Shown here piece by piece: positions 2,222 through 17,890 of a stretch of DNA of 64,000 nt. This DNA is from Candidatus Staskawiczbacteria bacterium RIFCSPLOWO2_01_FULL_33_13 (GTDB taxonomy: Bacteria > Patescibacteriota > Minisyncoccia > Minisyncoccales > Staskawiczbacteraceae). The stretch spans positions 47,039 to 111,038 of the forward strand of contig MHOW01000006.1 in assembly GCA_001820215.1 (NCBI GenBank), in the 5' to 3' direction. The notes beneath the pieces were generated by a model. The model saw only the letters and a program-made list of their open reading frames with translations. It did no database searches and was not told where the DNA came from. A program made the position numbers and the translations under genes. The stretch's first letter is position 1. Every line of letters begins with the position of its first letter.

Positions 2222-3485
2222 AAAAACTAAATTAAAAAATGGATTAAGAGTTATTTCGGTTCCAATGAAAAATGCTAATAGCGTAACAGTGCTTGTGTTG
2301 GTTGGAACGGGCTCTAAATATGAAACTAAAGACATAAATGGTATTTCCCATTTTTTGGAGCACATGTTTTTTAAAGGAACTAAAAAGCGCCCAACAACCC
2401 TGAAAATTTCAGAAACACTTGATATGATTGGAGGCCAATATAATGCGTTTACCTCAAAAGAAACTACTGGTTTTTGGGCAAAAGTTGATACAAAACATAC
2501 CGATGTAGCACTAGATTGGATTTCAGATATGTTTTTAAATGCTAAATTTGAAACAGAAGAAATTGATCGCGAAAAAGGGGTAGTAATTGAAGAGTTGAAT
2601 ATGTATTTAGATACACCCACTTCTTATGTGTCAGAGCTTTTTGAAGATTTGTTATATAAAGACCAACCTGCTGGTTGGCGCATTGTAGGAGAAAAAGAAA
2701 ACATTATGGCTTTTGACCGTGATAAGGTGGTTAATTATTATAAAACCCACTACTCAAACGAAAATACGGTTATTTGTATTGCAGGAAATATCAACACAAA
2801 ACAAATTGCAAAGAAAATAGAAAAATATTTTGGCGCTTCAAAAAATCAACAAGCCCTACCAAAGCTAGAGGTAAAAGAATTGCAAGAAAAACCTGAAATT
2901 TTACTGCACAATAAAAAAACTGACCAAACCCATTTTTGCCTAGGCGTAAGGGCCTACGATATGTTTGATAAAAGAAGGCACGCCTTAACTTTAATGTCGG
3001 TTATTTTAGGGGGGAACATGAGCTCGCGCTTATTTATTTCAGTCAGAGAGCGCAATGGATTGGGGTATTATGTGCACACTTCGGTTGATACAACTACTGA
3101 TACGGGGTATCTTGTAACCCAGTCAGGAATTAAAAATAATAGCCTAGAAAAAGCTATTGGCTTAGTATTAGATGAATACCGTGATTTAAAAAATAAAAAA
3201 ATCACCGCAAGAGAATTAAAAAAAGCCAAGGATTATATAAGAGGCAGTATGTCGCTTTCTTTAGATAGCACTGATGCCCAAGCTTCTTTTTATGCTAATC
3301 AAGAAGTAATGGGAAAAGAACTTTTAACTCCAGAAGAAAAAATGAAAATGATTGATAAGGTTTCTATACATGATATAAAGAAGGTAGCTGAAGATATATT
3401 TAAAAATGGAAAATTAAATTTGTCAGTAATAGGCCAATTTAATGAAAAAGACAAAGATCGTCTTTTGCAATTATTAAAAATATGA
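2214..3485 (+). CDS. M16 family zinc peptidase (insulinase-like)
   Basis: Inverted zinc motif HFLEH near the N-terminus. About 420 aa. The stop overlaps the next start (ATGA). Confidence 0.8.
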   Translation: MFKKTKLKNGLRVISVPMKNANSVTVLVLVGTGSKYETKDINGISHFLEHMFFKGTKKRPTTLKISETLDMIGGQYNAFTSKETTGFWAKVDTKHTDVALDWISDMFLNAKFETEEIDREKGVVIEELNMYLDTPTSYVSELFEDLLYKDQPAGWRIVGEKENIMAFDRDKVVNYYKTHYSNENTVICIAGNINTKQIAKKIEKYFGASKNQQALPKLEVKELQEKPEILLHNKKTDQTHFCLGVRAYDMFDKRRHALTLMSVILGGNMSSRLFISVRERNGLGYYVHTSVDTTTDTGYLVTQSGIKNNSLEKAIGLVLDEYRDLKNKKITARELKKAKDYIRGSMSLSLDSTDAQASFYANQEVMGKELLTPEEKMKMIDKVSIHDIKKVAEDIFKNGKLNLSVIGQFNEKDKDRLLQLLKI

Positions 3486-4504
3486 CAGAACAAACTCTAG
3501 ATATTTCTTGGAAAACCATACTTAAAATTTTAATTGCCGGTTTTATCTTGTATATGCTTTTTTTAGTAAAAGATATTGTGATTTGGTTTTTCTTTGCATT
3601 AATAATATCGCTTTTAGTTGAGCCGGTAATCAATTTTTTAAGAAGGCTGCACTTTCCAAAAGTAATAGCAGTCGTTTTGGTGTATCTATCAATTTTTGGG
3701 TTGTTAGGCTTGATGATTTACCTTACGGCCCCTATTTTTATTTTTGAAATAAATCAATTATCGCAAAACATTCCTGATTATTTTGAAAAACTCAATCCAG
3801 TATTTAAAAATTTAGGTATTGATGTTGCTAAAAATTTTGAAGATTTTAGCGCAAATTTAATTTCTGGATTGCAAGAAAGTTCTATAAATATTATCAAAGC
3901 CATTTCTGTTTTCTTTGGTGGATTAACTTCTACAGTTTTAATTTTTGTTTTTGCTTTTTATATTTCCTTAGAAGAAAAAGGACCAGAAAGATTCTTATCT
4001 CTTTTGGTCCCCAAAAAGTATGAAGGGTATATTGTAAATATTTTTGAGCGATCTCAATTCCAAGTTTCTGGTTGGTTTGGAGCAAGAATTCTGGCTTGCA
4101 TATTTGTGGGAATTGCCTCTTTTATTGTGTTCTTTTTATTCGGTATTAAGTATGCATTTATTCTTTCTTTAATTTCTGGAGTATTAACCCTTGTACCTTT
4201 CATAGGACCGCTTGTCACTGCTTTATTGGCGCTTTTATTTGTAGGAGCATCTAATTCTTGGTTTTTGGCAGCGTATGTTGTAGTTGCTTTATATATAATC
4301 CAAGTAATAGAAAATAATATTGTTACACCTTTGTTAATGAAAAAATTCTTAGATTTACCGCCTATTTTAGTATTAATATCATTATTAATTGGAGGAACTA
4401 TTTTTGGATTTTTGGGAATGATTTTTGCAGTTCCTGTGTTTGGAATTGTGTACCAGTTTTCAAGAGAATTTTTAATAAAAAAGAGAGAAGAAAATAATTA
4501 TTAG
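3482..4504 (+). CDS. AI-2E family transporter (PerM-like permease)
   Basis: Eight-TM-like hydrophobic profile. Conserved C-terminal IENNIVTPLLM-like segment. Confidence 0.7.
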   Translation: MTEQTLDISWKTILKILIAGFILYMLFLVKDIVIWFFFALIISLLVEPVINFLRRLHFPKVIAVVLVYLSIFGLLGLMIYLTAPIFIFEINQLSQNIPDYFEKLNPVFKNLGIDVAKNFEDFSANLISGLQESSINIIKAISVFFGGLTSTVLIFVFAFYISLEEKGPERFLSLLVPKKYEGYIVNIFERSQFQVSGWFGARILACIFVGIASFIVFFLFGIKYAFILSLISGVLTLVPFIGPLVTALLALLFVGASNSWFLAAYVVVALYIIQVIENNIVTPLLMKKFLDLPPILVLISLLIGGTIFGFLGMIFAVPVFGIVYQFSREFLIKKREENNY

Positions 4505-4506
4505 AC

Positions 4507-5022
4507 CTATTGATAACTTATTAGCACAATACTGATAAAAATTGCTATAGCCTGGGTTAAAATTCTGAAAGGAATGGAGACCAGAGCACTAAAAAGAATA
4601 TTTTTAGTGCTCGGCCGAGCACTCAATTCATTGAGTGCTCTGGTTTTTTTATACCTTAAAAAATGCACTTTTTGGATATGTATTTTATCGTGCAACAATA
4701 AAAATTTATTACTAAATAAAGAGCTTATTATAGTTAAACCGTCCGGTATTAAGGAAACAAAAACGCAAATATATATTATTAGTTGATTTTTAGAAAAGAG
4801 CAAAATTATTATTATGGCTAGGCAAAAATCTAAAAATACTTTTAAAATATCGGGTAGAGATTTTCTCCAATTTTTTTCTCTTATATTATCAATAGAATAT
4901 TCAATGTGAGGGAAAAGATCTAAAAAATAATGGCCTAACAAAGCCAGTATAATAGCTAAAAAAACATTATGAATTACACTTCCAATGGCTGCTCCAAAGA
5001 GCATATGGGCTAATAAGATCAT
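4507..5022 (-). CDS. membrane protein, possibly DUF457 / YdjM-like metal-dependent hydrolase
   Basis: N-terminus MILLAHMLFGAAIGS. Multi-TM. The 3' part overlaps a plus-strand terminator structure. Confidence 0.35.
   Translation of the reverse strand: MILLAHMLFGAAIGSVIHNVFLAIILALLGHYFLDLFPHIEYSIDNIREKNWRKSLPDILKVFLDFCLAIIIILLFSKNQLIIYICVFVSLIPDGLTIISSLFSNKFLLLHDKIHIQKVHFLRYKKTRALNELSARPSTKNILFSALVSIPFRILTQAIAIFISIVLISYQ
4584..4650 (+). terminator. tandem hairpins plus T-tract (terminator for the AI-2E gene)
   Basis: First hairpin gagcactaaaaagaatatttttagtgctc. Second hairpin gagcactcaattcattgagtgctc followed by tggttttttt. Lies inside the antisense ORF 4507..5022. Confidence 0.5.
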
Positions 5023-5063
5023 TGCAGATTTAAGATTTATGATTTAAGATTTACTAATCTATT

Positions 5064-6494
5064 ATGACAAAAAAATTCTACATTACAACTACCCTACCTT
5101 ATGTAAATGCATCTCCGCATATTGGTTTTGCGATGGAAATAATCCAATCAGATGTTATAGCCCGACATAAACATCAGCAGGGTTTTGAAGTTTTTTTTAA
5201 CATGGGTTCTGACGAACATGGCGTAAAAATATTACGCAAGGCCCAGGAATCCAACATGGAGCCCAAGGCCTATTGCGATATTTATGCCGCCAAGTTTGAC
5301 AATTTAAAAGAAAAACTTAATTTAACTTACAACAACTTTATTCGTACAACTGACGATCATCACATAAAAGCCGCGCAAGAATTTTGGTTGCGGTGCCAAA
5401 AAAATGGTGATATTTATAAAAAAAATTACAAAGTAAAGTATTGCGTAGGTTGTGAATTGGAAAAAACCGATTCTGAACTTGAAAATGGCAAGTGTCCGGT
5501 ACACCCTAATCAGGAAATTGAACTAATAGAAGAAGAGAATTATTTTTTCAAATATTCAAATTATAAAAAACCGCTTTTAGATTTTTACGAAAAAAATCCG
5601 GATTTTGTAGTACCGGCATCACGTTTAAATGAGATTACAGAATTTACCAAAAAAGGATTGGAAGATTTTAGTATTTCAAGATTAAAAGCAAAAATGCCTT
5701 GGGGAGTAGATGTTCCTAATGACCCAAACCATGTAATGTATGTGTGGTTTGACGCCTTAGTTGGGTATATTTCAGCGCTCGGCTGGCCCAATAACGATAA
5801 ACAATTTAATAATTTTTGGCCGGGCATACAGGTTGCAGGAAAAGATAATTTACGCCAGCAATCCAGCATGTGGCAGTCAATGTTGATGTCTGCTGGCCTA
5901 CCTAATTCAAAACAGATTTTTATCCACGGCTTTATTACCGTTAATGGACAAAAAATGTCTAAGTCGCTAGGAAATGTCATTGATCCCTTTGAATTAGTTG
6001 AAAAATACGGGGTTGATGTGATTAGGTATTATTTATTGCGAGAAATTACCCCCACAGAAGATGGTGATTTTACTATTGAAAAACTTGAACAACGATACAA
6101 TTCTGACTTAGCTAGCGGTATAGGAAATTTATTAGCAAGAACAATTACTCTCGCAGTAAAACCAAATTTTGAAGAAAAAAAACCAAGTGCAAAAATAAAG
6201 AAAGAAGCAACTAAGACAAAAAAAATCTGTGAACAATATTTAGAAAATTTTAAATTTAATGATTCTCTAAAATCAATTTGGGAACTGATTACTTTTTGCG
6301 ATAAATACATTAACCAAGAAAAACCGTGGATCGCCAGCAAAAAATCTTCCCAAGTTATTTCTGATATTTTATTTGCATTAGAAGAAATTTCATACCTATT
6401 AAAGCCATTTTTACCAGAAACCTCAGAAAAAATAAAAAATATGCTTAAAAGTAAAACATCAGAGATTTTGTTTCCAAGGCTGTTAAAATCCTAA
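5064..6494 (+). CDS. metG: methionine--tRNA ligase
   Basis: HIGH-type motif PHIGFAME. KMSKSLGN motif. Cys cluster CVGC...CPVH. Confidence 0.9.
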   Translation: MTKKFYITTTLPYVNASPHIGFAMEIIQSDVIARHKHQQGFEVFFNMGSDEHGVKILRKAQESNMEPKAYCDIYAAKFDNLKEKLNLTYNNFIRTTDDHHIKAAQEFWLRCQKNGDIYKKNYKVKYCVGCELEKTDSELENGKCPVHPNQEIELIEEENYFFKYSNYKKPLLDFYEKNPDFVVPASRLNEITEFTKKGLEDFSISRLKAKMPWGVDVPNDPNHVMYVWFDALVGYISALGWPNNDKQFNNFWPGIQVAGKDNLRQQSSMWQSMLMSAGLPNSKQIFIHGFITVNGQKMSKSLGNVIDPFELVEKYGVDVIRYYLLREITPTEDGDFTIEKLEQRYNSDLASGIGNLLARTITLAVKPNFEEKKPSAKIKKEATKTKKICEQYLENFKFNDSLKSIWELITFCDKYINQEKPWIASKKSSQVISDILFALEEISYLLKPFLPETSEKIKNMLKSKTSEILFPRLLKS

Positions 6495-6496
6495 GC

Positions 6497-7363
6497 ATGA
6501 TTATTGATACTCATAGCCACCTACAATTTAACGCCTATAAGGACGATGTGAATGAAGTAACAAAAAGAACCCAATCTAAAAATATTTGGTGTATTAATGT
6601 TGGGACCAACTATCCGTCAAGCAAAGACGGGATTTTATTTGCCGAAAAACACGGGGAAAGTTTTTTTTCAGCTATTGGCTTGCATCCGATGTATGCAGGC
6701 GCTGAATTTTTAAAAATCAAAAATGATGATAATGAAAGCAAGGAATTAGTTGAAGAAAATACTTTTGACACTCAAAAATACAGGGAATTGGCTCAATCAA
6801 AAAAAGTAGTGGCGATTGGCGAAATTGGACTAGATTATTACTACAAGCCGAAAACTGCCACGAAGTTAGCGGAGTTTAAAGAGAAACAAAAACAAATTTT
6901 TTTGCAACAACTAGATTTGGCAAAAGAATTAAATCTGCCCGTTATTTTACATTGCCGAATGGCGCACGAAGACATTTTAGAAATTCTTAAATCATATATC
7001 GTAAATCATAAATCAATGAATGGAGTGATTCATTGTTTTACGGGCACAATTGAGCAGGCAAAAAAATATATTGACCTTGGATTTAGTATTGGTATTAATG
7101 GAATTATTTTTAAGTTTAATATAGATGAAGTAATTAAAAATATTTCATTAAGCAACATGCTTCTTGAAACTGATTGCCCGTATTTAACCCCCCTGCCCGC
7201 TGTAGCTTTAGCGAAAGCGGGGCCTGATAGCCACATAAGAAACGAACCGATTTTTATAAAACACACTATCCAAAAAATCGCAGATTTAAAGGGAATTACT
7301 TTTGAGGAGGTTTGCAATAAAACTACTCAAAATGCTAAAAGATTATTCACCCTGGTTAAATAA
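6497..7363 (+). CDS. tatD: TatD family hydrolase
   Basis: N-terminal IDTHSHL. Conserved His and Asp residues characteristic of TatD. Confidence 0.8.
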   Translation: MIIDTHSHLQFNAYKDDVNEVTKRTQSKNIWCINVGTNYPSSKDGILFAEKHGESFFSAIGLHPMYAGAEFLKIKNDDNESKELVEENTFDTQKYRELAQSKKVVAIGEIGLDYYYKPKTATKLAEFKEKQKQIFLQQLDLAKELNLPVILHCRMAHEDILEILKSYIVNHKSMNGVIHCFTGTIEQAKKYIDLGFSIGINGIIFKFNIDEVIKNISLSNMLLETDCPYLTPLPAVALAKAGPDSHIRNEPIFIKHTIQKIADLKGITFEEVCNKTTQNAKRLFTLVK

Positions 7364-13636: not shown

Positions 13637-13682
13637 CACATACGAAAAAAGAAGAGATTAATCTCTTCTTTTTTCGTATGTG
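13637..13682. terminator. perfect palindrome, bidirectional terminator
   Basis: cacatacgaaaaaagaagagattaatctcttcttttttcgtatgtg, between the PAP2 gene (+) and tRNA-Leu (-). Confidence 0.6.
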
Positions 13683-13764
13683 CCCGAGGTGGGAGTTGAA
13701 CCCACATGATATTGCTATCGCGGGATTTTGAGTCCCGTGCGTCTGCCAATTCCGCCACCCGGGC
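13681..13764 (-). tRNA. tRNA-Leu (anticodon CAA)
   Basis: Reverse complement folds as a cloverleaf with a 7-bp acceptor stem GCCCGGG/CTCGGGC. Anticodon loop CUCAAAA. Long variable arm. T-loop GGTTCAACTCC. Confidence 0.85.
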
Positions 13765-13800: not shown

Positions 13801-15843
13801 TCAAGCTTCTTCTTTCTTAAAGTCACAATCTTTACTTGAGCACTTCACTTTTTTAGATTTTGTTTCAACTAATATTAAACCACATGTCGGACAAAACTCA
13901 TTGATTGGCTTATCCCATGCCGCAAAATCACATTTTGGATAATCATCACAACCATAAAATATTTTGCCTCTCCTGGTTTTTTTAGCTACCACCTGCCCCT
14001 TTTTGCATTTTGGACAAATAATATCTATTTTTATTGCCTGCGCTCCCGGATTATCTTTTATAATTGATTCGGTGTGTTTACAATCTGGAAATCCAGTACA
14101 GGCGTAAAATCTACCAAATCGCCCCATTTTATCAACCATATCTTTACCACATTTTGGACATTTTTTATCGGTTTTAATAGTTAAATCTTCTTTTGGAATT
14201 TCATCATATTTTTCTTTCAAATTTTTAGCAAATGGACCATAAAAATCTCCAACGATTTTTTCCCATACATCTTTACCTTCGGCTATTTCATCAAGCCCTT
14301 TTTCCATTTTTGCGGTAAATTCAATATCCACAATTTGCGGAAAATTTTTCACCAGCATTTCATTAACAATAGTTCCCATTTCAGTAGGCGCAAATCTTTT
14401 TTGTTCGTTTTTTGCTATGTAATTGCGGTCTTGTATCGTAGATAAAGTTGGTGCGTAGGTTGAAGGCCTGCCTATTCCATGAGATTCGAGTGCCTTAATC
14501 AGCGAAGCTTCGTTATAGCGGCTAGGAGGCTCGGTATAATGCTGGCTTGGATTTATTTTCACTAATTCCAATATTTCTTTCTCTTGTAATTTTGGCATTT
14601 CATTTTCTGAAAATTTCATCGGATAGATTTTTAAAAAGCCGTCAAATTTAAGCATTTGCCCATTAGCTCCAAAAATATATCCATTTCCCCCATTAATTTC
14701 AATAGAAGTTGAATCAAATATGGCTGGCGTCATTTGCGAGGCAATAAATCTTTGCCAAATTAAAGTATAAAGTTTAAGCTGCGCACCCTCTAATTCACTT
14801 TTCATAGATTCCGGAGTTTTATCCGCATAAGTAGGCCTTATGGCCTCGTGTGCTTCTTGAGCATTACCCTTAGCTTTAAATAGAGTGCCCTTAAAATAAT
14901 CATTGCCAAAAGATTTTTTAATAAACTCTTCAGATGCAATTAAAGAAGATTGGGAAAGATTCAAAGAGTCAGTTCTATGATAAGTAATATGCCCCTGCTC
15001 ATATAGTTTTTGAGCAACCGACATGGTCATTTTTGCAGTAAAATGGAATTTATTAGCCGCAGTTTGCTGCATGGTGCTTGTAGTAAATGGCGGCAGAGGA
15101 TTTCTTTTTGTTTCTTTTTTAGTAATTTTTTCTATTTGATACTTTGCGTTTTCTAAACCGACTAAAATTTCATCAGCATGTTTTTTATTTTTTATCTCTA
15201 GTTTATCAATAATTTTTCCGTCTTTTTTAATTAAAAAAGCAGAAAAATTTTTATTTTCCTTATTAAAGATTGCCTCAATCTCCCAATATTCCTCTGCAAT
15301 AAATTTTTTAATTTCTTCTTCTCGCTCAACTACTAATCGCACCGCCACTGATTGCACGCGCCCAGCAGAAAGCCCTTTTGATATTTTTTTCCATAAAAAA
15401 GGGGATAATTTATACCCCACAATTCTATCTAAAACCCTGCGGGCTTGTTGAGCATCTACCAAGTGCATATCTATCTTTCCAGGTGTTTTTAGAGCCTCTG
15501 CAATAGCGCTTTTAGTAATTTCGTGGAATACAATTCTTTTTGGATCTTTTAAATTCAGGGCCTCCGCCAAATGCCATGAAATAGATTCTCCTTCGCGATC
15601 TTGGTCAGTTGCTAAAATAACCTCATCAGCTAGTTTTGCCTCCTTCTTTAATTCAGCAATAACTTTTTTGGCTTTTGTAGGAATTACATATTTAGGCTCA
15701 AAGTTTTTTTCAACATTCACACCAAGTTCGCGTTTTGGTAAATCGCGCACATGACCAAAAGAAGCCACTACTTTATAGTTTTTTCCTAAAAAGCGGCTGA
15801 TTGTGCGTCCCTTGGTTGGGCTCTCCACCACAAGTAAAATCAT
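13801..15843 (-). CDS. topA: DNA topoisomerase I
   Basis: Toprim N-terminus LVVESPTKGRTI. Several C-terminal C4 zinc ribbons (CPKCGK..., CPTCG...). Confidence 0.9.
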   Translation of the reverse strand: MILLVVESPTKGRTISRFLGKNYKVVASFGHVRDLPKRELGVNVEKNFEPKYVIPTKAKKVIAELKKEAKLADEVILATDQDREGESISWHLAEALNLKDPKRIVFHEITKSAIAEALKTPGKIDMHLVDAQQARRVLDRIVGYKLSPFLWKKISKGLSAGRVQSVAVRLVVEREEEIKKFIAEEYWEIEAIFNKENKNFSAFLIKKDGKIIDKLEIKNKKHADEILVGLENAKYQIEKITKKETKRNPLPPFTTSTMQQTAANKFHFTAKMTMSVAQKLYEQGHITYHRTDSLNLSQSSLIASEEFIKKSFGNDYFKGTLFKAKGNAQEAHEAIRPTYADKTPESMKSELEGAQLKLYTLIWQRFIASQMTPAIFDSTSIEINGGNGYIFGANGQMLKFDGFLKIYPMKFSENEMPKLQEKEILELVKINPSQHYTEPPSRYNEASLIKALESHGIGRPSTYAPTLSTIQDRNYIAKNEQKRFAPTEMGTIVNEMLVKNFPQIVDIEFTAKMEKGLDEIAEGKDVWEKIVGDFYGPFAKNLKEKYDEIPKEDLTIKTDKKCPKCGKDMVDKMGRFGRFYACTGFPDCKHTESIIKDNPGAQAIKIDIICPKCKKGQVVAKKTRRGKIFYGCDDYPKCDFAAWDKPINEFCPTCGLILVETKSKKVKCSSKDCDFKKEEA

Positions 15844-16949
15844 TTTGAAAATTTATTAATAATATTATATTTATGTATTCCCAGTGCTGAAGCTTTGTGC
15901 TGAATTTCTTGCCATTTTCTACCGGGAAATAGGGATAATAGTTTACTTTTCGGATATGTTCTATAAAACTTTCGTATAATTTCTTCCTCTTCTTTTGTGT
16001 AACCCTTTCTGTATCTTATTTCTACCAGAGAGGCTCTTTGGGCAAGTTTAAATTTCCTTTTAATGTATAGTGTAGAATTCGTGTAAAGATAATCTATTAG
16101 AGTTTTTGCTGAATTTGACCTATACGCTATATAAAAAAGAAACTGACTATTTTCATCTTTTTTTACGCTACATATTTTTGAATAAAGATTAAATGTATTA
16201 AGAAAATGATTCTGTATAAAAGTTATAGTATTTTTCCCTCCGCAAACACTTATGGTGGGGTGATTTCTTTTATCGAAATAAATGCTACCATCACCATCTA
16301 TAACACCTCGTATGAAATCTTTTATATATTCGCGGGGAACAATTGGAACATTTTCCCTTAAACTTTTCCTATATATAATACCCAATTTCTTAAGATCATC
16401 GACAATTATCTGACTAGTTATGCCGAGGTGAAAGGCATTTAGAGAAGGAGAAATTTTGTGGTTTGAAGATAATTCTTTTTTTATTTTTTCTAAAATATCA
16501 ATATCTCTTTTCTGTACTCCAAACTTCAAAGCATCACTATAACCCTTGTATATTCCTTTGACAATACATCCATCAGCCAGAATAAAACCAAGAATATAGG
16601 CCATTTCAGAAGACCATGTTTTAAAATAATTTTCATTAACCGCTAATCGGGGGTGGTTTCTGTTTTGTTTTAATCCCAATCTTTCTCCTTGTGCCCATAT
16701 AGCAGTTTTAGACCTTCTGGGTAAAAATTTTAAAAGTTCTTGTATGTTATGGGTGGGGAAATACTTGTGCAATATTTTATTATCTTTTAATTGCCATAAC
16801 TTTGCCGAAGGAAGCCTTAAGCTTAATGCCTTTGCAACAATGGTAGGTTTAGTTCGATCGGGAAACATTGTAATTAAATCACTTACCCTTTTTACTGGAT
16901 AATATTCTTTCAGGAGAGCAATTTCTTTTTGTGACCATATTCTACTCAT
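15840..16949 (-). CDS. free-standing LAGLIDADG-family homing endonuclease-like protein
   Basis: Two LAGLIDADG-type motifs (ILGFILADGCI and FIRGVIDGDGSIY). Repeated HTH-like modules at both ends. The stop overlaps the topA start (ATGA). Confidence 0.65.
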   Translation of the reverse strand: MSRIWSQKEIALLKEYYPVKRVSDLITMFPDRTKPTIVAKALSLRLPSAKLWQLKDNKILHKYFPTHNIQELLKFLPRRSKTAIWAQGERLGLKQNRNHPRLAVNENYFKTWSSEMAYILGFILADGCIVKGIYKGYSDALKFGVQKRDIDILEKIKKELSSNHKISPSLNAFHLGITSQIIVDDLKKLGIIYRKSLRENVPIVPREYIKDFIRGVIDGDGSIYFDKRNHPTISVCGGKNTITFIQNHFLNTFNLYSKICSVKKDENSQFLFYIAYRSNSAKTLIDYLYTNSTLYIKRKFKLAQRASLVEIRYRKGYTKEEEEIIRKFYRTYPKSKLLSLFPGRKWQEIQHKASALGIHKYNIINKFSK

Positions 16950-17026
16950 GCCCTCATTATACTATAATTTTGGGCTTTCTACTATCACTAAATCCATATT
17001 TTTTTAATTTGATATTTAAAAATTAT

Positions 17027-17890
17027 TTATACAATAGTATATACATTGCCGCCTAGGTTTCGTATCTTACCCGAAATTTCCATTAAGGCAAGTGAAGTTA
17101 CTACTAAAGAAGCATTTAGTTTTGTTTTCTCAATTATTTTGTCAATATATAACGCTTCTTCTTTTAGTGCGGCGAAAATAAGCTGTTCTTGCATATTTTC
17201 GGACGCAAAAATTTTTTGGGAAACTTTCTCTGCCTCAACTCCCAATACATCTAAAATATCTTTTGAACTTTCAACCAGTGTTGCCCCCTCTTTTATTAAT
17301 TTATTCGGGCCCTGTGAATTCAACGAAAAAATTTGGCCGGGTACCGCAAATAATTTCTTTTTTTGTTTTATTGCATAATTTGCGGTAATTAATGATCCTG
17401 ATTTCTGCTTTGCCTCAACGACCAAAACTCCCAAAGACAATGCTGATATTATTCTGTTTCTTTTGGGAAAAGAAAAAACAGATCCGTGTGTGCCAGGTGG
17501 TAGCTCCGAAATTAAACAACCATGATTTTCAATTATTTTTCTTGATAATTCTAAGTTTTGCTGGGGGTATATGCTTTTTTCATCTAATCCTGTGCCTAAC
17601 ACCGCAATGGTTATTTTCTTTTTTTCAATGCAAATTTTATGAGCAAAAGTATCTATGCCGGGCGCCATTCCTGAAACAATAACTAATCCTGCATCCACTA
17701 ATTCTCCTGTAATCTGTAAGGTTGCTTGCTGACCATACAAAGAAGGACGCCTTGTCCCAACAATCCCAAAACAATTTTCATTTTTTGGTAAACTTCCTCT
17801 ATGATACAAAACTTTAGGCGCATCAGGAATTTTTTTTAATAATTCCGGATAACTTTTATCATTTATTGAAATTTCCTGTATGTCTTCCAT
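17027..17890 (-). CDS. dprA: DNA processing protein DprA/Smf
   Basis: GIVGTRRPSLYG...SGMAPGIDT Rossmann-like DprA core. Confidence 0.85.
   Translation of the reverse strand: MEDIQEISINDKSYPELLKKIPDAPKVLYHRGSLPKNENCFGIVGTRRPSLYGQQATLQITGELVDAGLVIVSGMAPGIDTFAHKICIEKKKITIAVLGTGLDEKSIYPQQNLELSRKIIENHGCLISELPPGTHGSVFSFPKRNRIISALSLGVLVVEAKQKSGSLITANYAIKQKKKLFAVPGQIFSLNSQGPNKLIKEGATLVESSKDILDVLGVEAEKVSQKIFASENMQEQLIFAALKEEALYIDKIIEKTKLNASLVVTSLALMEISGKIRNLGGNVYTIV

Follow-up and report, generated by a model that had tools for sequence, protein, structure and literature searches.

Free-standing homing endonuclease genes (HEGs) and intronless homing have been documented mainly for phage genes of the GIY-YIG and HNH families, and LAGLIDADG enzymes have mostly been described in introns, inteins and organelles. 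The gene described here, a LAGLIDADG homing endonuclease gene abbreviated LHE, lies between dprA and topA in a 64,000-nucleotide (nt) stretch of contig MHOW01000006.1 (hereafter the window) from Candidatus Staskawiczbacteria bacterium RIFCSPLOWO2_01_FULL_33_13. Comparative sequence data and a structural model make it fairly probable that LHE is a selfish, free-standing HEG that occupies a fixed site before the topA start codon and spreads by homing of the intronless type.

In T4-like phages, seg and mob are free-standing homing endonuclease genes that undergo "intronless homing" (PMC2988022, PMC2790892). LHE resembles these genes in its location within a spacer between two conserved genes, in its sporadic occurrence among relatives, in the proposed reading of the gene from a host transcript, and perhaps in a correlative linkage of its presence to polymorphisms of a neighbouring gene, which would be consistent with cleavage within that gene and with a co-converted flank. 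As for T4-type genes, the flanking genes are themselves conserved neighbours, since dprA and topA are adjacent in most loci that lack LHE, and the distribution is sporadic and discordant with host phylogeny, as seen in the frequency of carriers (about 1 in 21 related loci), the excess of synonymous similarity and the support for an LHE clade. In contrast to seg and mob, which are phage-borne and belong to the GIY-YIG or HNH families, LHE encodes a LAGLIDADG protein on a Patescibacteria chromosome and docks at a start codon with a stop/start overlap.

Other described systems resemble LHE in its enzyme family. The monomeric two-domain endonucleases of archaeal introns and inteins (I-DmoI, I-Tsp061I, PI-PfuI and the TliVMA intein endonuclease) have the fold predicted for LHE, a pseudo-dimeric two-domain layout, a catalytic Asp at the end of each LAGLIDADG helix and, judged by position, a conserved Lys past the third helix of each domain; unlike them, LHE is accompanied by neither an intron RNA nor a Hint domain, and adds two N-terminal and one C-terminal Myb-like repeats. 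The closest annotated sequence relatives are I-812II of Staphylococcus phage 812 (EF136585) and the phage family phrog_4645, which share one helix-turn-helix (HTH) repeat and the LAGLIDADG core with LHE. I-812II, the second-ranked and best-annotated match in phage records (27.7% identity over amino acids (aa) 16-306, or 79% of LHE), is annotated as intron-encoded, in a group I intron of a recA-like gene, whereas LHE is free-standing on a bacterial chromosome. As genuine mobile endonucleases, these relatives count in favour of homing by LHE. In candidate phyla radiation (CPR) bacteria, LAGLIDADG endonucleases occur in insertions of the 16S and 23S rRNA genes, often group I introns (PMC11270868). 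These genes share with LHE the host phylum, the enzyme family and, presumably, a highly conserved target sequence, but LHE is situated between protein-coding genes. WhiA (DUF199) is a domesticated LAGLIDADG transcription factor that has lost its catalytic residues (PMC3384342); like LHE, it is a chromosomal gene product in which a LAGLIDADG core is tethered to HTH DNA-binding modules. Measured against the features of such a domesticated regulator in PMC3384342 (catalytic residues lost, vertical inheritance throughout the host clade), LHE is not WhiA-like: its putative catalytic residues are invariant and its distribution is patchy. Within an incomplete coverage of the literature, no paper was found that links a LAGLIDADG gene to topA or describes free-standing LAGLIDADG genes in CPR or DPANN genomes.

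The LHE gene and the fold of its product

The principal features, in window coordinates, are as follows.

15840-16949, minus strand: LHE, an open reading frame (ORF) of 369 aa with an ATG start
13801-15843, minus strand: topA, directly 3' of LHE; 680 aa; TIGR01051 at 2.3e-231, with Toprim, Topoisom_bac and Zn-ribbon domains
17027-17890, minus strand: dprA, upstream of LHE; 287 aa; PF02481 at 3.9e-74 and TIGR00732 at 1.6e-74
15840-15843, minus strand: overlap of the LHE TGA stop with the topA ATG, 4 shared nt (ATGA)
16950-17026, minus strand: dprA-LHE spacer, 77 nt
16350-16610, minus strand: predicted LAGLIDADG domain 1 (aa 114-200) with Asp126 (16572-16574) and Lys195; D126, G127 and K195 invariant in 26 sequences
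16026-16334, minus strand: predicted LAGLIDADG domain 2 (aa 206-308) with Asp220 (16290-16292) and Lys299; D218, G219, D220, G221, R298 and K299 invariant
16809-16940, minus strand: Myb-like repeat 1 (aa 4-47), helices 7-16, 22-28 and 34-43; hhalign to repeats 2 and 3, probability 96.5-97.3%
16665-16799, minus strand: Myb-like repeat 2 (aa 51-95), helices 54-63, 69-75 and 81-90; from hhalign
15870-16004, minus strand: Myb-like repeat 3 (aa 316-360), helices 319-328, 334-340 and 346-355; hhalign probability 97-98%

An earlier note on this DNA, made from the sequence and its ORFs without database searches, had described a free-standing gene for a double-motif LAGLIDADG endonuclease between dprA and topA, translationally coupled to topA and possibly domesticated. 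ORF and profile matches bear out its coordinates, the two motifs (ILGFILADGCI at aa 119-129 and FIRGVIDGDGSIY at aa 212-224), both neighbours and the ATGA overlap. The note had also held that the gene is neither an intein nor part of an rRNA or tRNA intron, and this agrees with the data: topA is intact, the N-terminus of the product consists of Myb-like repeats with no Hint domain, and an Rfam scan of the whole 64-kb window at gathering thresholds returned a single match, one tRNA, with no rRNA or intron RNA. An intein was accordingly rejected as a candidate, LHE being an independent ORF that has a start and a stop of its own and Myb-like repeats at both termini, and so was a group I or group II intron-encoded endonuclease, since LHE lies between complete ORFs and is not intron-borne by the Rfam result.

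In a large protein database, LHE has 395 homologues at E<=1e-3, the best 120 of which are 53-99% identical to it, so the ORF is no chance reading frame; those of the best 120 that carry a source label are assigned to Wolfe-, Nealson- or Patescibacteria or simply to "bacterium". Taken alone, the window's LHE falls just below the Pfam gathering thresholds (22.0 versus 22.5 bits for LAGLIDADG_3 and 18.4 versus 23.1 for LAGLIDADG_1). LAGLIDADG_3 is matched by 26 of 26 aligned family members, the best at 1.1e-9, so the profile search that the earlier note had proposed as a check recovers the named family, with the window's own sequence 0.5 bit under the cutoff. The phage family phrog_4645, described as "endonuclease", matches LHE at 4.3e-46. 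Searches of NCBIfam and, with the single sequence, of the PDB gave no matches, and the PADLOC defence-system models gave only a weak, generic "homing endonuclease" match (5.9e-4).

An AlphaFold (AF2) model built on the family alignment has a mean predicted local distance difference test (pLDDT) score of 86, and the order of its secondary-structure elements over aa 114-308 is that of the LAGLIDADG family. When the model was compared with the PDB by Foldseek, the top 50 matches listed were all LAGLIDADG proteins (homing endonucleases, engineered variants and one intron maturase) at probability 1.0. Among these are the intein endonucleases TliVMA and PI-PfuI together with I-OnuI, I-Tsp061I and I-AniI, with E-values of 7e-9 to 6e-7, as well as the bI3 maturase, also at probability 1.0. 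The two-domain model and its matches to solved enzymes thus bear out the double-motif endonuclease of the earlier note, and the structure prediction that the note had suggested finds the LAGLIDADG fold. By predicted fold and active-site sequence, LHE is a member of the LAGLIDADG homing endonucleases.

The putative active site is conserved throughout the family alignment of 26 sequences, which has a mean column identity of 63%. D126 and D220, each the final acidic residue of its LAGLIDADG helix, are invariant, as are K195 (YRKS) and K299 (ERKF), which follow the third helix of each domain; a Lys of the I-DmoI type in the beta1-beta2 loop is kept in domain 2 only (K227, at least 90%). A profile search of the PDB gave marginal E-values (0.015-0.07) that are useful for residue mapping alone. 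In this mapping, D126 aligns with the Asp of the first motif in E-DreI's I-DmoI half (1MOW; D21 in I-DmoI numbering), and D220 aligns with the LAGLIDADG Asp of the I-CreI half (D20 in I-CreI numbering). In the same marginal search, LHE also aligns along the TliVMA intein endonuclease, with the K195 region opposite its "KLGIPESKKARN". K195 and K299 are presumed to be the lysines of intein blocks D and H (I-CreI K98 type), an assignment made by position rather than by three-dimensional superposition. The window's copy of LHE looks intact.

The three HTH-like repeats mentioned in the earlier note are real and homologous to one another, with profile-profile hhalign probabilities of 96.5-97.7% and E-values of 1e-9 to 1e-12. 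Repeat 2 is common to the Bacillaceae and phage relatives, whose matches begin at about aa 54-65, and repeat 3 is optional, being absent from homologues of about 320-335 aa. The latter repeat matches phrog_323, a phage regulator family, at 3.4e-11, and also the N-terminal part of a phrog of HNH endonucleases; these matches suggest that mobile nucleases have a DNA-binding module in common. Individual repeats can be superposed on Myb (1IDY, root-mean-square deviation 1.8 A over 44 residues) and on the DNA-binding domain of GcrA (5YIU, 1.6 A over 43), though at no significant Foldseek E-value. Foldseek with the N-terminal repeats alone gave no significant match (best E 0.46), and "Myb-like" therefore denotes a resemblance, not a classification.

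Distribution and descent of LHE

A one-genome-per-species scan yielded 23 orthologue loci (L001-L023), which together with the window, one locus from a topA-based scan (L089) and eight further contigs (L162-L169) make 33 loci in all. topA lies directly 3' of LHE in each of the 30 orthologue loci for which downstream DNA is available, a tight junction in keeping with the translational coupling that the earlier note had read from the window. The LHE-topA spacing is between -83 and +63 nt in 18 of 20 genome loci, mostly an overlap or at most 12 nt, and the two exceptions are disrupted copies, L019 with a truncated ORF and L022 with a fusion. dprA is usually upstream of LHE, yet as much as 3 kb may separate the two, and dprA may also be missing; the partner that stays constant is topA, dprA being just the usual upstream neighbour of topA. 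In the window and many other loci LHE stands alone, with a gap of 1-150 nt to dprA, and in other loci 0.5-3 kb of extra DNA lies between the two genes. Several source titles look unreliable, namely those of L009 and L011 (titled Gammaproteobacteria), L010, L016, L017, L020 and L021 (titled Saccharibacteria), and L019 and L023 (titled Doudnabacteria); these loci share the dprA-LHE-topA arrangement and group with Paceibacteria-type TopA sequences.

A scan of metagenome contigs used a TopA alignment as its query, which made the choice of loci independent of LHE. In this sample, about 20 of 21 related loci that could be assessed have no LHE, L089 being the sole carrier, and the synteny comparison recommended in the earlier note thus shows no housekeeping gene universal among relatives. 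Where LHE is missing, dprA usually abuts topA across a spacer of 3-136 nt. The closest TopA relatives of the window are devoid of LHE: L081, with TopA 65% and DprA 67% identical to those of the window, has none and shows a dprA-topA gap of 34 nt, and L084, L086, L146, L130 and others lack it as well. In a neighbour-joining TopA tree of 98 taxa, which is poorly resolved at such depth and was used for its qualitative pattern alone, the carriers fall within one clade and are interleaved with LHE-less loci, with L081 as sister to the window and L001, L084 as sister to L014, and L146 as sister to a clade of L012, L016, L017, L019, L022 and L023. LHE is present in a scattered subset of Paceibacteria-type Patescibacteria.

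Descent was compared at synonymous sites by counting identical codons at residues conserved in both sequences and subtracting the expectation from the codon usage of each gene. In nine locus pairs, the identical-codon excess is +0.10 to +0.22 for LHE versus +0.01 to +0.09 for the flanking topA and dprA, and in these pairs LHE therefore shares a more recent ancestor than its flanks do. Such recent ancestry also accounts for the seemingly high protein conservation of LHE without strong host-level selection. For window-L001 and L016-L023, the excess is equal for LHE and flanks, which fits vertical inheritance within those lineages, and the window copy was probably inherited vertically within a small window-L001 lineage. 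Distances for LHE and topA correlate weakly (Mantel r=0.39, p=0.001). L004 and L014 have an identity of 0.77 in LHE versus 0.60 in topA, and the LHE clade of L004, L014 and L015 receives 100% bootstrap support against TopA identities of 0.58-0.60. The topology of the topA tree was discarded as evidence of conflict, since a bootstrap tree of 17 taxa groups L006, L015 and L089, at odds with both the 98-taxon tree and the raw identities; conflict was judged from identities and synonymous contrasts.

The presence of LHE is also linked to sequence differences at the 5' end of topA, in the following feature.

15797-15840, minus strand: zone of insert-linked polymorphism, a candidate recognition or co-conversion tract; topA nt 4-47, codons 2-16

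The codon of the invariant TopA Ser8 (VESPTK motif) is AGY in 29 of 29 carriers and in 7 of 20 non-carriers, the other 13 having TCN (p=3e-7, a value inflated, like the other Fisher p-values, by the phylogenetic non-independence of carrier loci, 8 of the 29 having been fetched after the AGY pattern had been spotted). Linked differences beyond Ser8 occur at codons 2, 5, 9, 12 and 16: a T at the third position of codon 5 is found in 0 of 29 carriers versus 11 of 20 non-carriers, and a G at the first position of codon 12 in 13 of 29 versus 19 of 20. Among 638 aligned TopA columns, the strongest association with LHE is at residues 12, 2, 5 and 25. Differentiation measured segment by segment along TopA has a modest 5' excess (1.13 versus 1.00-1.09), and no recent co-conversion tract was seen by eye in topA between L004 and L014, whose LHE copies are similar. 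The concentration of the signal beside the insertion site is more robust than the p-values. Overlap with the LHE reading frame could constrain the first seven topA codons in some loci, and none beyond. Two readings of the AGY-type sequence are compatible with these data, in which it is either part of the recognition site or co-converted with the insert, and derived states in carriers, such as the change from Ala12 to Ser, could represent immunity changes.

Some copies of LHE are disrupted. In otherwise conserved copies, TAA replaces Gln146 in L010 and TGA stands at the position of Lys227 in L019; in L022 (JAJZRC010000019.1, 5971-9078), an LHE lacking its first 63 residues is fused in frame to topA, giving a 1035-aa ORF. 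Because the L022 junction crosses an A8 homopolymer, the fusion may be either real or an artefact of assembly. Disruption of this kind is in keeping with the invasion-decay cycle of HEGs, and it speaks against an essential host role.

Proposed selfish homing and competing explanations

Taken together, the patchy distribution, the synonymous contrasts and the conserved active site make LHE look mobile rather than host-tamed. If it is a HEG, the monomer would sit with its two domains as the usual saddle over an asymmetric site about 20 bp long, with the Myb-like repeats probably extending the contacts to flanking DNA. The enzyme would cut HEG-less alleles in or beside the first 50 nt of topA, leaving a staggered double-strand break, and recombinational repair from a HEG-bearing copy would then install the gene, as in the intronless homing of T4 seg and mob. 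Only AGY-Ser8 alleles appear to hold the insert, either as the sequence recognised or as one co-converted with the gene. Donor DNA would presumably be supplied by natural transformation or by the presence of more than one chromosome copy per cell, a step that is speculation. These steps of cleavage, target choice and transfer are modelled on the established behaviour of the LAGLIDADG family.

LHE would be expressed from the host dprA-topA transcript. A promoter/terminator scan found no terminator-like site in the dprA-LHE spacer and no terminator-like hairpin between dprA, LHE and topA; promoter-like matches around LHE are no commoner than the shuffled expectation, with one in the dprA-LHE spacer (16988-16961). 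Since the LHE stop overlaps the topA start, the insert would leave topA expression unblocked. The overlap would keep topA translated and render the insert nearly neutral, and clean or imprecise loss may be disfavoured. No paralogue of LHE was found elsewhere in the 64-kb window.

Several observations weigh against selfish homing. The mean pairwise protein identity of LHE, at 0.58, matches TopA's (0.57), a high level of conservation for a selfish gene, and the GC content of LHE (31.3%, versus 32.2% for the window) is host-like. Between the window and L001, LHE displays no synonymous similarity beyond that of its flanks. The non-independence of the carriers and the shallow resolution of the TopA tree, both mentioned above, soften the statistical and phylogenetic arguments, and the patchiness could in principle have arisen through many precise losses. 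Stop/start coupling in every locus, together with the L022 fusion, could reflect a functional tie to TopA. The support is comparative throughout, for cleavage, target and transfer alike, and the route by which the endonuclease meets a HEG-less allele belongs to speculation.

The alternative that survives best, although it is unlikely, is that LHE encodes a domesticated LAGLIDADG protein, a sequence-specific DNA-binding or nicking factor that is co-expressed with topoisomerase I and works with it or regulates it. One form of this explanation envisages a WhiA-like autoregulator of the dprA-topA operon that binds DNA through the Myb-like repeats. The overlap or near-abutment with topA in 30 loci, the in-frame fusion of L022, the equality of mean protein identity with TopA and the host-like composition are all compatible with it; the extra HTH repeats recall the HTH of WhiA (PMC3384342), and the Pfam model of the WhiA LAGLIDADG domain is weakly matched by 4 of 26 family members. 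The earlier note had likewise suggested domestication, but this part of it fares poorly. LHE is absent from about 20 of 21 related topA loci, including L081, the sister of the window's lineage, and dprA directly abuts topA in most relatives; the four residues taken as the canonical catalytic set do not vary in the family alignment, in contrast to their loss from domesticated relatives of the WhiA type. Furthermore, the synonymous sites indicate more recent common ancestry for LHE than for its flanks in many pairs and point to horizontal transfer, two copies bear nonsense mutations and one is truncated in otherwise normal loci, and the fusion crosses the A8 homopolymer at which an assembly error may have occurred. 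Relatives with the same core lie 5' of the unrelated metK and UDG-family genes, for which site-specific parasitism is the better fit.

An improbable alternative regards LHE as a passenger or decaying remnant within a small integrated element that moved by means other than homing, such as a mini-island that carries an excisionase-like HTH_17 gene and was taken up at the dprA-topA spacer through recombination or transformation. In six loci, a 57-aa gene of the PF12728 HTH_17 type (excisionase/MerR-like) lies just upstream of LHE and is followed by a variable small ORF. Its positions are listed below.

L167, 2400-2573: HTH_17 gene
L165, 2311-2484: HTH_17 gene
L163, 2434-2607: HTH_17 gene
L013, 1560-1733: HTH_17 gene
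L014, 5601-5774: HTH_17 gene
L004, 301-417: HTH_17 gene

Between loci, the HTH_17 gene shows 84-95% protein identity and 81-90% DNA identity, far above the flanking genes; it matches the PADLOC "mad1" model (7e-10) and occurs in no LHE-less locus. Along with the 0.5-3 kb of extra DNA between dprA and LHE in other loci, this association is what a captured island would predict. Nevertheless, the flanks that were inspected showed neither an integrase nor a transposase nor a terminal repeat, LHE is by itself in the window and many other loci (the window also being without the HTH_17 gene), and LHE is the sole constant component, with its catalytic residues under constraint. The weakest candidate, and a very improbable one, is an ancient, vertically inherited clade gene that has been lost many times and is now a slowly decaying relic, neither mobile nor functional for the host; the equal synonymous similarity of window-L001 and L016-L023, the positive correlation of the LHE and topA distance matrices and the existence of disrupted copies would suit it, but invariant catalytic residues and 63% mean column identity are unexpected in a relic, synonymous divergence is lower than that of the flanks in nine locus pairs, and repeated precise deletions restoring the short dprA-topA spacer would be needed.

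If the homing explanation is true, gene-drive-like elements would operate in the uncultured, reduced genomes of Patescibacteria and between deeply diverged lineages. A LAGLIDADG lineage would then have as its target the 5' end of a bacterial chromosomal gene for an essential protein, and its spread would provide indirect evidence of DNA exchange among Patescibacteria. It would also be a source of new scaffolds for monomeric meganucleases, equipped with Myb-like repeats as additional DNA-binding modules. For annotation, such "hypothetical proteins" are homing endonucleases, whose presence is no evidence of a topA-related function.

Relatives at other host genes and neighbouring elements

The more distant relatives share 27-46% identity in the core; every one of them is a free-standing ORF, with lengths of 135-444 aa. 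Three groups are recognized by their downstream gene.

L024, L027, L034, L037, L040, L044, L052, L053, L056, L078 and L079: 11 loci of DPANN archaea, relatives directly 5' of metK (S-adenosylmethionine synthetase)
L025, L026, L028, L029, L045, L046, L048 and L059: 8 loci of CPR and other metagenome-assembled genomes, relatives directly 5' of a UDG-family (glycosylase) gene
L057, L058, L063, L065, L068, L071-L074, L076 and L080 (e.g. L072, 5983-7172): Bacillaceae relatives, counted as 12 loci, 5' of a 123-aa ORF

Stop/start overlaps are common in the metK- and UDG-linked relatives, the same docking habit at different host genes. It is possible, though doubtful on present comparisons, that the wider family as a whole rides on the transcription and translation of its host genes and spreads between lineages by intronless homing, presumably fed by transformation. 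If true, no earlier case of homing by free-standing LAGLIDADG genes on the chromosomes of cellular prokaryotes would have been described, and the family would constitute a set of natural long-target nucleases aimed at the 5' ends of essential genes. In a less likely variant, the topA-linked branch would in addition have gained a host role in topA control. Among the UDG-linked relatives, L028 is titled Gammaproteobacteria, a title that looks unreliable.

The Bacillaceae relatives are 240-290 aa long, consist of one HTH repeat and the LAGLIDADG core, and invariably precede a conserved ORF of about 123 aa, which is 56-69% identical between genomes and has a weak DUF6364 match. The relative and this ORF together look like a two-gene cassette.

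Additional LAGLIDADG elements have been observed at topA itself. In L162 (ENA ERZ27284378 k139_240705, 2387-5384), whose LHE is 78% identical to that of the window, topA bears an intein of about 515 aa with its own LAGLIDADG motifs, positioned two residues before the catalytic tyrosine (..QKLYEEGL/CVDEN...VSHN/CTYHRTDS..). With both this intein and a 5' LHE, topA of the L162 lineage appears to have been hit by two different homing elements. L169 contains, besides its 5' LHE, a second LAGLIDADG ORF of 251 aa just 3' of topA (6314-7069), which is about 30% identical to the core. In the window, the position immediately 3' of topA is occupied by a tRNA gene (13681-13764, minus strand).

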